Made by a program: the position numbers and the translations under genes
In this document: piece by piece, positions 2,295-57,069 of the stretch
Position numbering within the stretch: position 1 is the stretch's first letter
Layout: every line of letters starts with the position of its first letter
Notes under the pieces: model-generated
Told to the model about the DNA's origin: nothing
Databases searched by the model: none
What the model saw: only the letters and a program-made list of their open reading frames with translations
NCBI GenBank assembly: GCA_048885925.1
Contig: JBHLLG010000002.1
Coordinates: 1-64,000 of the forward strand
Length of the DNA: 64,000 nt
Direction: 5' to 3'
From: Candidatus Hermodarchaeota archaeon
GTDB lineage: Archaea; Asgardarchaeota; Lokiarchaeia; Sigyniarchaeales; SOKP01

Positions 2295-4061
2295 TTGATG
2301 ATGATGAATATGATCTCAAAGAAAGAATCAACTGTTTTAGAGGAATCAGAAGAGTACATAATAATTGGTGAAATGACGCATAAGGATCATCATCATCTTA
2401 GAAAATTATTAATTTTCATAATGATCTTAATTATTACTTTAACCTGCCTCCAATTCAACAAAACACAAAGTTATAATCATTATGAAAGGGTTCAGTTTGA
2501 ATCATCTGGGTCCCTTCTATATGCTAACTTATATTATCCCTCAAAAACTCTTGATTTTCAAGAAAGGCGCCCTTTAATAATTTATTGCCATGGAATCGGC
2601 TCTAAAAGGGATTTTGATCTTAGAATTCCCATCGAATTCACAAAAAGGGGTTTTTATGTTGCTGCTCTTGATTATCAAGGCCATGGCGAGAGTGGTGGAA
2701 ATATTAACAATATAGATCCTATAACGGGTATTCCTGCTTTAGCTCAAGATTGTACTAATTTATTAGATAAATTAGAAACAATGTCCTTTTACTTTGATGT
2801 TAATCTCTCTCAGATTGGATTAATCGGACATTCACTTGGAGGGATGATTGTTTTGATGAATCAAGCATTAGACTCCCGATTTAAAGTAACAGTTGCATTA
2901 GCTCCACTTGTTAATTTCAATCCACCAAGGTTTGGTTTTGTTTATAATGAAAATCTAATTTATTATATACCTGTTAATTTGCTTAATGAGGAAAATACTG
3001 AAAATTTATTGATAATACACCATGAAAATGATGAGATATTAGATTTTACTGAAAATGCGTTAAGGGCTCAGGAGTTAACGAATTGTACTGTTATTAAAAT
3101 TTCAGGGTTTCTACTTGGAGGAGCTCATCAATTATTTTCAGATAGTGTTCTTATTAAATCGATCGAATGGTTTGAGTGGCACTTTTTCAATTCCACTACT
3201 ATAAATGGACCTATTGATATTACGTTTTACTTCAATTATATATTAATTTTCATAAATATTCTAATAATTTTCATAACTATCATATCCTTAATATCTGTAT
3301 CAGCTAGTTTATTCTTCAGAAACAATAACAAGATTGATAAGCTTTATTCACTTAATTATAGAAAATTTGATAATTCAAATAAGAGAAGGCAAGTTATTAA
3401 ACCGATCGCTTATACTGGAGCGTTCTTACTAAATTGGATCTTATTTGAAAGAATTTTTGGTATGGTTGGAATTATTTATGGTTCAATTGGTATGATTTTA
3501 TTTTTTGCAGTAATTAAATTAGCGTTATATTTTAAAGAATCTAAAAATATAAGGTTCAATTTTATATTAAAAGAGAAAATTAAGTTGGAATTTAAGTTAA
3601 AGTATTCAATTTTTACAGCAATATGTGCAGCTTACTTTATTGGAATATATATGTTATTCTCATTTTATTACCCCTTCGGATTCATTTGGCCTTCTAATTT
3701 CGTTGTAGAATTTATATTAGGTTATTTAGCATTCCCTGTGTTTTTATCAGTAGAAATTTTGCTACGAAAATTAATTTATCCGAATTTAAAATTTTTAAAA
3801 TCAGAAAGTTCAAAGAATAGAATACTAATAATTACTTCTATTATAGTAACGGTAAGTTTGATGGGATTAATGCGAAAATTTTCATACTTTCCTTCTGTCT
3901 TATTCATGTACATAATATTCTTATTAGTAATTATTCAAAATACCAAAATATTTCAAAATGTGAATTCATTTTATCCGGTGGTCATAATTTCCTTTAGCAT
4001 TATTCAAATATTCTTTGCTACTGTACTATCTAATGCAATTGGAATCAGTATGGTTCTATAA
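2295..4061 (+). CDS. Alpha/beta-hydrolase with C-terminal multi-TM domain
   Basis: HGIG oxyanion motif, DYQGHGES, nucleophile elbow GHSLGG, followed by about 8 hydrophobic helices. Confidence 0.8.
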   Translation: MMMMNMISKKESTVLEESEEYIIIGEMTHKDHHHLRKLLIFIMILIITLTCLQFNKTQSYNHYERVQFESSGSLLYANLYYPSKTLDFQERRPLIIYCHGIGSKRDFDLRIPIEFTKRGFYVAALDYQGHGESGGNINNIDPITGIPALAQDCTNLLDKLETMSFYFDVNLSQIGLIGHSLGGMIVLMNQALDSRFKVTVALAPLVNFNPPRFGFVYNENLIYYIPVNLLNEENTENLLIIHHENDEILDFTENALRAQELTNCTVIKISGFLLGGAHQLFSDSVLIKSIEWFEWHFFNSTTINGPIDITFYFNYILIFINILIIFITIISLISVSASLFFRNNNKIDKLYSLNYRKFDNSNKRRQVIKPIAYTGAFLLNWILFERIFGMVGIIYGSIGMILFFAVIKLALYFKESKNIRFNFILKEKIKLEFKLKYSIFTAICAAYFIGIYMLFSFYYPFGFIWPSNFVVEFILGYLAFPVFLSVEILLRKLIYPNLKFLKSESSKNRILIITSIIVTVSLMGLMRKFSYFPSVLFMYIIFLLVIIQNTKIFQNVNSFYPVVIISFSIIQIFFATVLSNAIGISMVL

Positions 4062-54166: not shown

Positions 54167-54739
54167 ATGTGTGCCGAAGAGAAGGGCTACGGGTTCAAAA
54201 TTACAGTCATTGGAGATGGAGCGGTAGGAAAAACATCCCTAATTAAAAAATATACGCAGGGATCCTTTCGAGAAGAATATATCGCAACATTAGGCACGCA
54301 ATTTTCCAAATATGAAGAAAAAATTGATGGAGAAAAAGTTGAGTTGTTTTTATGGGATATTGCAGGACAAGATCAATTTCAAGCATTACGACAAAGGTTC
54401 TATATAGGGAGCAGTGGAGCTATCATCGTTTTTTCTCATGATCCAGCACAACTAAGATCTTATGAACATGTTCCTAAATGGCTTGATGATCTTAAAAAGC
54501 ATTGTGGAAATATACCAATAATTTTATTTGGAAATAAAATTGATTTGGTAGATGATGGAAAATTAGAATCAAATCCAAATATACCCACTTCAGATATAAA
54601 TGTTGAAACTTTTGCAAAAGAAAATAGATTTATTGGATATTATAAAACAAGTGCATTAACTGGTCAAGGAGTGACTGATGCCTTTGAAGTACTTGTTAAA
54701 AAACTATATATGATCGCTAAAATTTCAAGTTTTACTTAA
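54167..54739 (+). CDS. Ras-superfamily small GTPase (tandem copy 2)
   Basis: GDGAVGKTS, YIATLG, WDIAGQD, NKID, TSALTG. Confidence 0.93.
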   Translation: MCAEEKGYGFKITVIGDGAVGKTSLIKKYTQGSFREEYIATLGTQFSKYEEKIDGEKVELFLWDIAGQDQFQALRQRFYIGSSGAIIVFSHDPAQLRSYEHVPKWLDDLKKHCGNIPIILFGNKIDLVDDGKLESNPNIPTSDINVETFAKENRFIGYYKTSALTGQGVTDAFEVLVKKLYMIAKISSFT

Positions 54740-54786: not shown

Positions 54787-57069
54787 TTACGTACGTTTAT
54801 AGATAAATCTTTCCCAACTCTTCTTACTTGGCGCTTCTAATGGCATATTTTTACGCTTGCGAATATCCATAATGATACTTTCTTCTAATTGAGGAGGAAC
54901 TTTCTCAAATCCTAAAAATTCATATCCAAAAAATGCCCGTCCCGCTGTTGAGCCCCTAATATCGTCAGCAAGTCCTATAGTTTCTGCAGCAGGAATTTGA
55001 CCTTGAATTCTTACATATTCTCCCTCAGGAATAACGTTAGTAATTCGACCTCTTCTTCTAGTTATAATACTAGAAACTGATCCTTCTGTACCCTGTGGTG
55101 ATTTCACATCTATCTTCTGTATTGGCTCAAAAAGGTGTGGATTTGCATCCAACATAGCCAAGGATACAGCAGAGAAGAACATACCAGCAATCTGCCCATA
55201 TTGCGTATGTCTGGGGTCTTCATGGATTGTCATATCAGTAAAAACGACTTTGATTCCAGCAGCAGGTTCTTTTGCTAGGATACAATTGCCAAGCCAATCC
55301 CTAAATGCAGCACTTAAATATGATCTTACACGATCAAATCTCTGTAATCCTGAGGTACCATTTACAAGAACACTTCCATGATAGAGATCAACAATTCTTC
55401 TTGCTTCTTTAGCGTCCCATCCAGCTTCTTCTCTAAGAATTTGAGCTCGATCTTTCTCATTTTGCAGATCATTCACTTTACCGGTTTCTATCAAACGTTC
55501 AGTTTTTTCATCTAAGGGTTCTATATATAATAAAACACGATTATGCGTGTTTGCTGATTTAGTATAATAATCAGGACTTTTTTGAGTAATTTTTTCCCTA
55601 TATACGATTATTGGTTCTCCAATATTAATTTGCACTTGATTATTTATACGTTTTACTAAAATTTCTATCTGTAATGGGTCGATTCCAGATAAAATAAATT
55701 CTCCTGATTCTTGATCTCTTCTATATTCTGCTGTTGGATCTGCTTTTAACCATTTACTTACAACCTCATCCAGTTTATCTATATCATGTGGATCTTTTGG
55801 TTTAATGCTTCTCGAGACAACAGCTTCACATGCATAATGGATTTTTTCAAAGGCGGGTATTCTTTTCCTTTCTTCCTTATCTTTAGGGACATCATTTGCG
55901 TTAATAAAGGTTTCTCCTGATGGAGAAATGAATCCATACAATGCAAATAAATTGCCAGCAGGAACTTTAGGAATATCTAAAATATCTGTAATTTCCATCA
56001 CTCCAAGTCTTTTCACTCGAGTTTGTGAATCACTATTAACAAGATAAAGTGTATCACTTTGATCAAAGGTACCCGAAAAAACACGACCGATAAGTGTGGC
56101 CTGATAATTTCTTTTAGGATCAAGGAAAATCTTAGTAATCATACCATAAAGAGGTCCTTTAGGGTCGCTTTTAACAAGAGCTTGACCAAGTTCCGATTTT
56201 AAGTCACCTCCCCAAATGTGGGGAATTCTATACTTTGAAGCAGTAACTGGATCTGGTAAATGATCTACAATCATTCTTAGCATAGGTTCATCTAGAGGTA
56301 GATTGTCCCTTAACCACTGAATATCACCTTCATTATATTTAGCAAAAACATCTTGGGGTTTCAAACCTTTTTCCAATAAAATCTCGTAAGTAAAACCCCA
56401 ACCATGTTTTGCTGAACCAACTGCCACAGAATTTTTCGCAAAATCAATACTCCAATCTGAGCCTTCTGGTCTAACCTTCTTGATCAGATCATTTACTTCT
56501 CTAGTGATTTTATCAATCTTAGCAAAGGTTTGTTGTGGGGTTAATTTAAGCTCACTAATAAGGCGGTCAACTTTATTAATGAAAAGAACGGGTTTGCAGT
56601 ATTCCTCACCGACAGACAATCTAATATTAGTTTCTGTTTGTGTCATAACGCCCTCAAGAGCATCCACCAATATAATAGCACCATCACTGCCTCGAAGAGC
56701 TCTTGAGACCTCTCCGGTAAAACTGATATGACCGGGGGTATCATTGAGCTGAATAATATAAGATTCATCATCTTCTGGCTTTCTAGGGTCATTAAATGCA
56801 AGAAGAACTACACTTGTGAATATAGTAATGCCCCGTTCCTGCTCCTCGTCTTTCAGTAGATCAAGTAAATCTTAATCTAAATCTGAATCTGTCATTTGGA
56901 GCTGTCCGGCATCCTCGGGTCGCATGAGACCAGCTCTGCGTAGTAAGTAATCAGTAGCTGTAGTTTTGCCATGATCAATATGAGCTGTGATTGAAAACAA
57001 CCTTTTCTTTTTATATGAACCTTCTGTAACCAATTTTGCTATAGTCTCAGGGTTCTTTACTTTAACCAT
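54787..57069 (-). CDS. fusA: Translation elongation factor EF-2, split: join(57069-56881, 56850-54787), 750 aa after removal of a 30-nt insert
   Basis: Exon 1 (63 codons) has G1 AHIDHGKTT; the same frame continues after the insert with DEEQERGITIF...NDTPGHISFTGEVSRALRGSDGAIILVDA into ORF 54787-56670 (NKVD, domains II-V). Confidence 0.93.
56851..56880 (-). other. Putative bulge-helix-bulge/loop (EndA-type) mRNA intron in EF-2
   Basis: Sense sequence TCAG-AT^T-TAGATTAAG-ATTTA-CTTGATCTA-CTGA-AA^G: 4-bp central helix, two 3-nt bulges, 9-bp intron stem; canonical cuts excise exactly 30 nt containing the in-frame TAA. Confidence 0.82.

Follow-up and report, generated by a model that had tools for sequence, protein, structure and literature searches.

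The window analysed here is a stretch of 64,000 nucleotides (nt) from a Candidatus Hermodarchaeota archaeon (contig JBHLLG010000002.1, positions 1 to 64,000), and the subject of this report is a 30-nt insert in its gene for elongation factor 2 (EF-2; aEF-2 in archaea). The gene occupies 57069-54787 on the minus strand as one EF-2 reading frame that is interrupted by a single in-frame TAA (56872-56874), so that the frame is presented as an open reading frame (ORF) of 65 amino acids (aa; 56872-57069) followed by an open stretch of 694 codons (...TDSDLD*DLLDLLKDEEQERGITI). Across the insert the frame reads ...QMTDSD[LD*DLLDLLK]DEEQERGITI, where the brackets enclose the 30 nt at 56880-56851 of the minus strand, and the minus-strand letters around the insert run ...ACAGATTCAGAT, TTAGATTAAGATTTACTTGATCTACTGAAA and GACGAGGAGCAG. 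The sequence and the ORF reading agree with the original prediction for this DNA, which held that two EF-2 pieces share one frame and that the 30 nt at 56851-56880 contain its only stop.

The upstream piece, exon 1 (56881-57069, minus strand), comprises 63 codons from the ATG at 57069-57067 to ...TDSD and covers positions 15-60 of the aEF-2 profile, while exon 2 (54787-56850, minus strand) starts with DEEQERGITI, comprises 687 codons and a stop (54787-54789), and covers positions 62-720. On the NCBIfam aEF-2 model (TIGR00490) the match to the upstream piece runs out at profile position 60 and that to the downstream piece resumes at 62, with the first residue of the downstream piece filling 61; deletion of the ten codons therefore brings back collinearity with the profile exactly. 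The 30-nt register is the only one that gives the TDSDDEEQ of intron-less orthologues, and registers one base off in either direction read SEDE or SDYE (by eye from the sequence). An unspliced message would yield the 65-aa fragment.

The named relatives of the window gene are Promethearchaeota or Promethearchaeia, in keeping with the Asgard host that had been proposed. A second EF-2-like gene (G000:C14:44377-46371, minus strand; L002) lies elsewhere in the same genome, which is referred to here as G000. It has 33% identity to the window gene and is without the His loop of domain IV: its sequence is ...ELKIENINEENAF... against ...IHEDPRHTQYGQ... in the window gene. An EF-2 paralogue, aEF-2p, is described for dph-lacking Asgard archaea in excerpts of Narrowe et al. 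(PMC6143161). Following that description, the window gene is identified from its sequence as the bona fide translocase aEF-2 and the second gene as aEF-2p, which cannot stand in for the translocase because the His loop is absent.

Fold of the insert

The original prediction took the insert for a relaxed bulge-helix-bulge (BHB) motif in the EF-2 mRNA, of the type processed by the tRNA-splicing endonuclease, and every comparative test run here points the same way. The putative intron is laid out as 1 nt, a 9-nt stem arm, a 5-nt loop, a second 9-nt arm, a 4-nt strand of the central helix and 2 nt. The exon strand of the 4-bp central helix H is UCAG (56883-56886, minus strand, as are all features of the fold), and its intron strand is CUGA (56853-56856), placed by the fold and by the alignment of inserts at this position, termed site 1. 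The intron helix h' (56857-56879) is formed by arms at 56879-56871 (UAGAUUAAG) and 56865-56857 (CUUGAUCUA) around the loop AUUUA (56870-56866). The 5' splice-site bulge A-U-U (56880-56882) has its predicted cut between 56881 and 56880, and the 3' splice-site trinucleotide A-A-G (56850-56852) between 56851 and 56850. Cutting after the second bulge base, the rule for EndA on which the original prediction relied, removes exactly 56880-56851 in silico and gives the TDSDDEEQ junction; the same rule gives a functional junction, again in silico, in the genes for AMP phosphorylase, CdhC, CdhA, ferredoxin and FwdA described below. The 5' bulge consists of the last two exon bases and the first intron base, equal to pre-tRNA positions 36 and 37 and intron nt 1 in a numbering of our own in which positions 32-35 pair with the intron. 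Excerpts of PMC4090602 state that the first two anticodon bases of a pre-tRNA pair with the intron.

Folding of 66 nt around the insert gave a minimum free energy (MFE) structure of -12.4 kcal/mol (z -2.26; 6/200 shuffles equal). It contains the AUU bulge, the 9-bp stem (with one U-G pair) and the 5-nt loop as proposed, while the central helix appears as UUCAG/CUGAA, with 5 bp, in place of the proposed 4-bp UCAG/CUGA. In the MFE structure of 91 nt (-25.9 kcal/mol, z -5.2, equalled by 0/200 shuffles), the exon-exon pairings GCUCC/GGAGC and GAUGCC/GGCAUU are added. The first of these, between GCUCC of exon 1 (56898-56902) and GGAGC of exon 2 (56845-56841), is set off from the 3' site by an 11/4-nt internal loop. 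All eight intron-bearing alleles with enough flank read CAGCTCC, and seven of them read GAGGAGC (GAGGAAC in G023), whereas most intron-less alleles have CAACTT and GAAGAA at these positions. Tentatively, GCUCC/GGAGC may be a distal closing helix, or the flank may simply be linked with the intron.

The insert thus far described shows what characterises the relaxed HBh' class, namely a central helix H, one well-formed 5' bulge, a helix h', and a second site adjoining H without an exon helix h. A scan for the exact design (4/4 central pairs and a 9-bp stem with at most one mismatch) returned 855 matches over about 7.8 million positions of the genome, which has 29% G+C. The fold by itself is not rare in this genome, and therefore the comparative data bear the weight.

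Presence and pairing at site 1

Sixty relatives were searched, and an aEF-2 orthologue was found in 35 genomes of the genus, one of which (G017) is cut off before the site, leaving 34 informative. The alignment of relatives' EF-2 genes that had been suggested as a check gave precise presence in nine of these (G000, G001, G007, G013, G015, G016, G021, G023 and G030), where the 694-codon open frame recurs exactly and where reading of the sequence revealed, in 9/9, a 30-nt stop-containing insert directly after TCAGAT. The insert is precisely absent from the other 25 congeneric genomes, 21 of them read through the sequence and 4 judged by frame length only; 20 of the 21 intron-less orthologues read have TDSDDEEQ, and G033 has TDSDEEEQ. 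In other genera, all 22 informative genomes are uninterrupted at site 1. The site-1 insert also occurs on contigs of metagenomes and of named MAGs (metagenome-assembled genomes). On a tree of exon 2 (30 rows, first 150 nt omitted; G024 is misaligned and sits on a long branch), intron presence requires seven changes, six of which are forced by supported branches, and carriers are no more clustered than shuffled labels (158/500). These sequence comparisons indicate repeated and precise loss and/or gain of the site-1 insert among sister species.

An in-frame stop in a MAG is often an error, and the second EF-2-like gene could in principle cover for a broken copy, so three readings have to be weighed: an assembly artefact, a pseudogene in decay, or a gene put out of action by a small insertion in the DNA. 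The recurrence of the insert in nine species-level genomes speaks against all three, as does the tally of readable aEF-2 loci, of which 12 of 73 from metagenomes and 13 of 78 from named records are interrupted in frame within the first 65 codons. Furthermore, the ratio of non-synonymous to synonymous substitution rates (dN/dS) in exon 2 is 0.041-0.089 between pairs of intron-bearing genes and 0.048 for a pair of intron-less genes; this low exon dN/dS indicates that aEF-2 is functional in carriers, and aEF-2p cannot replace the translocase. An explanation by artefact or decay is therefore hardly credible. Automatic annotation would miscall the gene as a pseudogene, as had been anticipated, yet with exons under strong purifying selection and a recurrent insert it is no pseudogene.

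The site-1 alignment comprises 17 sequences (14 distinct) from genomes and environmental contigs. In it 93.4% of cells are paired, compared with 27.5-46.7% when the partners are slid, and across the 14 distinct sequences 90.5% of the cells of helix h' are paired. Two stem pairs have changed on both sides (27/500 shuffles were as good), and the covariation score was matched in 8/500 shuffles. The exon hexamer TCAGAT is invariant in 14/14 distinct carrier sequences and in carriers only, with non-carriers differing at synonymous sites (GACTCAGAT, GATTCGGAT, GACAGTGAT, GATTCTGAT, GATTCAGAC); such constancy is what an exon strand within helix H predicts. The intron of L108 is identical to that of G000, and the exon-2 DNA of the two is 84% alike.

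Among L107-L149, no metagenome locus near-identical to the window was found, the best exon-2 identity being 86%. The stretch or part of it is contained in 20 DNA runs from 9 studies, in which the insert itself was not read. The MK-D1 record (L258) has an uninterrupted aEF-2 N-terminal region. Seven contigs (L233, L203, L208, L219, L238, L239 and L244) bear the labels Nanopelagicaceae bacterium, Thorarchaeota, Odinarchaeota or Hodarchaeota, although their aEF-2 shares 86-96% identity with that of the window; mislabelling or misbinning is the probable cause. Directly downstream of aEF-2 in the window lies a gene for a 190-aa small GTPase (54167-54739, plus strand), named by eye from its Ras/Rab-like P-loop GDGAVGKT and its DIAGQ motif.

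The same design in other genes and sites

Genome-wide design scans combined with an open-frame test were followed by gene-by-gene checks, in which an intron was accepted if the profile ran on across it or if intron-less orthologues supported it. The further BHB-interrupted genes that the original prediction suggested looking for were found: at least seven other genes of G000 are interrupted by the same design, at lengths of 30-34 nt and each within a conserved motif. The finding is larger than that prediction held, since the design is not unique to EF-2. Three of the inserts leave an exact one-codon gap on the profile, namely those of AMP phosphorylase (G000:C5:45896-45925, minus strand; 30 nt, restoring DKHS-TGG, profile 165 to 167), CdhC (G000:C16:1810-1839, minus strand; 30 nt, between GGG and KQ, profile 323 to 325) and CdhA (G000:C6:5548-5581, plus strand; 34 nt, between YMP and ICDMCC, profile 61 to 63). 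In a ferredoxin, a 4Fe-4S protein (G000:C31:18957-18988, minus strand), 32 nt separate CNGCAFC from IRAC, exactly on three profiles. Removal of 30 nt from FwdA (G000:C7:85463-85492, plus strand) restores GPWEFALHH, which is uninterrupted in the five relatives read; among 31 matched genomes G000 is the only full-length match with a shortened frame. Removal of 31 nt from the gene of a JAMM protein (G000:C15:18539-18569, minus strand) restores HSHPGF-KVMMSHID and with it the motif HxHx7Sx2D, and in IorB (G000:C78:5060-5090, minus strand; 31 nt) the profile is continuous to within one position.

None of the eight introns has a sequence paralogue in the genome by blastn-short, and the mini-intron family is therefore defined by its design rather than by a repeated sequence; in MAFFT, introns of different genes aligned only with gaps. 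By estimate, about 5 of 250 same-frame interruptions (at least 100 open codons on each side) would match the design by chance with up to two mismatches, so counts of design matches prove nothing alone. Several candidates were rejected. At C5:49821-49850 (minus strand) an in-frame TGA in HdrA (TFPTDDCSI*ILGP, DCSLCILAP in a paralogue) most likely encodes selenocysteine, judged by eye, and C11:58405-58434 is the junction between neighbouring HdrA- and MvhD-like genes. Matches in C13, C15 (-33988), C7 (+828) and C137 are ordinary coding sequence in another frame, most of the remaining matches are AT-rich intergenic spacers, and where in-frame TAAs had been flagged in a third EF-2 paralogue, in G054 and G041, they proved to be terminal stops. 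A covariance model built from the AMP phosphorylase intron (R1) was too sequence-specific, scoring aEF-2 introns at 8.9-14.2 bits, within noise, and its best new matches (L028 4368-4415 and L031 4401-4448) lie inside an uninterrupted radical-SAM-like frame.

The AMP phosphorylase intron occurs in 13 of 36 matched genomes of the genus, with a distribution unlike that of the aEF-2 intron. Among its 11 sequences (10 distinct) 98.5% of cells are paired, five pairs are altered on both sides (2/500 shuffles), and its covariation score was reached by 0/500. The exon-intron helix itself covaries along with synonymous codon changes (UAGC/GUUA, UAGC/GCUA, CAGU/GCUG and CAGC/GCUG), which shows selection on RNA structure that includes exon bases and is the strongest single result of this comparative work. 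Conservation of helices by compensatory change is accordingly graded as strong for this intron and modest for aEF-2 site 1. The in-frame stops of the intron vary between TAA, TAG and TGA, and a reassigned stop codon is therefore ruled out.

These data also bear on the idea that the insert is translated, with readthrough or recoding of the stop adding ten residues to switch I of aEF-2. The 30 nt are divisible by three, and the insert peptide is loosely alike among species (LD*DLLDLLK, LN*DILSLLK). Against this, sister introns of 31, 32, 33 and 34 nt shift the frame, and because lengths of 31, 32 and 34 nt are also found within G000, frame-preserving readthrough cannot explain the family. Some introns contain two or three stops, in addition to the variation of stops within one intron family, changes compensate one another in the RNA, and the insertion sites fall within invariant motifs, namely the P-loop, DKHS-TGG and CxxCxxC-xxxC. 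Translation of the insert is thus very improbable.

In the aEF-2 genes of relatives and contigs, at least five intron sites are found, and on three contigs the first 65 codons are interrupted by two introns. In G016 (L031, minus strand 3683-3732) a second 30-nt insert lies in the P-loop, AH[LY*VFLIIA*]IDHGKT, with a GCGC/GCGU central helix, a bulge AUC to be cut after AU, a 9-bp stem with one U-U, a UUUUC loop and a final AA, in the same 1+9+5+9+4+2 layout. This site 2 is also occupied in L149, L209, L224 and L232. The introns of L128 and L225 at site 5 (between QMTD and SD) are much like that of site 1 and lie 6 nt upstream, at ACAGAU as opposed to UCAGAU; the 4-nt strand is CUGA in L128, as at site 1, and CUGU in L225. 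Their sequences look like the outcome of sliding or of pairing-guided re-insertion. L253, L246 and L130, from different lineages, have very different introns (30 versus 31 nt) at the same codon boundary, between AHID and HG, which would reflect either independent insertions at one site or rapid divergence. CdhC has three intron sites in the genus (G000/G027, G004 and G016), all with 30 nt, and the class-level relative G059 has a 31-nt copy in an aEF-2p-type gene, between DTPGH and VD. For the aEF-2 inserts of environmental and named contigs, which were defined by homology, 28/33 matched the design by script, compared with 2681/20000 random windows (13.4%). The five misses are all site-2 rows in which the aligner misplaced the gap by 7 nt; a re-check of two of them showed a fit, for L149 by a separate script and for L031 by eye, the other three being L209, L224 and L232.

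Programmed translational bypassing, known from phage T4 gene 60 and the yeast mitochondrial byp elements, likewise involves essential genes broken by short gaps that contain a stop and a hairpin. Ribosomes would hop over the 30 nt, with the hairpin and the early stop as take-off signals. A stop two codons past the junction, a stable hairpin where the gap begins, gap lengths near 30 nt and even lengths that are not multiples of three would all be compatible. Hopping requires that take-off and landing codons match, however, and on testing they did not. In aEF-2 a hop from GAU to GAC would give TDSDEEQ, one Asp fewer than TDSDDEEQ, while the landing codon is AAA for a take-off at ACA in AMP phosphorylase and AAU for a take-off at AUA in CdhA. 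Moreover, the covarying exon-intron 4-bp helix would have no role, and bypassing is accordingly improbable.

Putative splicing machinery, precedents and significance

Both enzymes expected for removal of a BHB intron are encoded in the genome. EndA (G000:C22:7621-8214) is a 198-aa protein with N and C domains (PF01974 at 101.7 bits in the genome search, and at 101.1 bits together with PF02778 in the translated ORF), and RtcB (G000:C12:26362-27669) scores 569.6 bits. ARAGORN called 19 of 31 tRNA genes intron-bearing, with rough boundaries and no obvious 30-nt design in common. Asgard EndA is given as (alpha-beta)2, with an L1 loop linked to broad specificity, in excerpts of PMC5829648, and two EndA paralogues are reported for 44 of 60 Asgard genomes in excerpts of a preprint (10.64898/2026.10.13.758758). 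Since a single EndA subunit gene turned up in G000, the broad specificity is an assumption drawn from the literature.

The stretch at 56851-56880 is probably a genuine, heritable 30-nt relaxed-BHB (HBh') intron of aEF-2 that would be cut by EndA and joined by RtcB; that excision takes place in the RNA, and that these enzymes carry it out, is inferred from sequence. In the pre-mRNA, exon UCAG would pair with intron CUGA to form the 4-bp central helix, EndA would cut following the second base of each trinucleotide, and RtcB would ligate the exons into an mRNA for a 750-aa aEF-2 (...TDSDDEEQERGITI), with the junction-spanning peptide ...QMTDSDDEEQER. The element appears, by sequence, to belong to a family of 30-34-nt mini-introns in protein genes of the clade, with repeated gain and/or loss.

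Several observations weigh against this interpretation. The MFE favours the 5-bp helix UUCAG/CUGAA, which implies a frame-breaking excision of 31 nt, and the 4-bp register with its 30-nt in-frame excision was picked via homology rather than energy. The 3' site is closed by a single adjacent exon pair (U56887-A56849), and its AAG lacks the proper exon helix that defines the canonical archaeal BHB (hBHBh'). At site 1, covariation is modest, the central helix is invariant and hence uninformative, and of the two pairs at the middle of the stem one fails to form in 4 and the other in 6 of the 14 sequences. Only three of four central pairs form at aEF-2 sites 3 and 5 and, by eye, in CdhC of G027 and G004, where the strict 4/4 scan was empty. 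G000 and G015 differ at 2 of 30 intron bases with an exon dS of 1.1, so the intron is kept more than structure alone needs, and could have another function or have spread laterally in recent times. No RNA run is among the sequencing runs listed as containing the stretch. Finally, EndA is represented by a single subunit gene, with no beta paralogue at E up to 10 in a genome that is 95% complete.

Some of these points would suit removal from RNA by other machinery, that is, another endonuclease and ligase or a guide-RNA system that recognises the hairpin and the 4-bp helix. The 3' site is not a closed bulge, one EndA subunit only was found, the intron is better conserved than synonymous sites, and the uniform size of 30-34 nt and the R-N-U-U-H-like 5-nt loops are not, to our knowledge, EndA requirements. 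On the other hand, we know of no other candidate removal system. The 3-nt/4-bp/3-nt spacing, seen in every copy examined, is the exact geometry of pre-tRNA (excerpts of PMC4090602), and a different removal system is unlikely.

Beyond excision by EndA and RtcB, the insertion sites of the mini-introns match the intron's own 4-nt pairing strand. A more tentative proposal, given slightly less than an even chance, is that proliferating BHB mini-introns of about 30 nt in Promethearchaeia colonise protein genes where the 4-nt intron strand pairs with the exon. It is favoured because of the near-copy with CUGA at site 5, the at least six to seven changes at site 1 and the FwdA intron in G000 only. Spread might occur if the EndA/RtcB reaction ran backwards on an mRNA, with reverse transcription or recombination as the next step.

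Known archaeal introns are all BHB, save a few group II introns (excerpts of PMC6125680), and in the literature accessible to the search, BHB introns in archaeal protein genes are otherwise known only from crenarchaeal cbf5. The cbf5 mRNA intron often has a relaxed motif (Yokobori, 2009; excerpts of PMC2738675), shows gain and loss among related species as here, and is linked in the same excerpts to a hetero-oligomeric, broad-specificity EndA. It is confined to one gene and one site in Desulfurococcales and Sulfolobales, whereas at least eight genes of one Asgard genome are concerned here, with several sites per gene and a uniform 30-34-nt design; its splicing was demonstrated experimentally, whereas splicing here is deduced. 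With aEF-2 as host gene and Promethearchaeota as relatives, the present element would work like the cbf5 intron but stands outside that family. HBh' introns of archaeal tRNAs (Marck and Grosjean, 2003, via excerpts of PMC4090602 and of the preprint 10.64898/2026.10.13.758758) share the 4-bp helix formed in part by the exon, the 3-nt 5' bulge, h', a weak or missing exon helix h, and cuts after the second bulge base. Unlike them, the introns described here lie in an mRNA, without a tRNA body that could aid recognition, and inside codons that encode conserved protein motifs. The intron-rich tRNA genes reported for Asgard archaea (PMC11291895 and the same preprint, in excerpts) come from the same superphylum, with the same presumed enzyme and many independent gains, but those excerpts concern tRNA genes, with protein genes as just synteny markers. 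No published report of BHB introns in Asgard protein-coding genes was found in a search whose scope excluded subscription journals and supplements. The enzyme logic is known; what is new is the host RNA class, the uniform mini-intron design, the many sites and the lineage.

The original prediction also compared the element with XBP1/HAC1 splicing and proposed that EF-2 output might be gated by it. IRE1-dependent splicing of XBP1/HAC1 removes a short piece of mRNA without the spliceosome, and the ends are joined by a tRNA ligase (RtcB in animals). IRE1 cuts at two 7-nt loops, under stress regulation and in a single dedicated target. The aEF-2 intron is instead a single hairpin with a 5-nt loop, and no sign of regulation or of an IRE1-like nuclease, for which no search was made, emerged here. 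Gating of EF-2 is left unsupported, the element being optional among sister species and present in unrelated metabolic genes; because it occurs in such genes and comes and goes, tolerated or selfish introns fit better than EF-2-specific control.

If these introns are spliced, an Asgard lineage needs tRNA-splicing enzymes for its only translocase and for CdhA, CdhC and FwdA of the Wood-Ljungdahl pathway. Gene callers would systematically split or discard such genes in Promethearchaeota MAGs, with metabolic reconstructions and pseudogene counts distorted as a result. Splicing would also mean that a living system of mRNA intron gain and loss, with dozens of presence/absence polymorphisms, exists in the closest prokaryotic relatives of eukaryotes, in which the arrival of introns, and how a cell copes with them under coupled transcription and translation, would become directly testable. 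Should the colonisation proposal also be true, splicing of essential mRNAs by tRNA-splicing enzymes would be routine in the closest archaeal relatives of eukaryotes.

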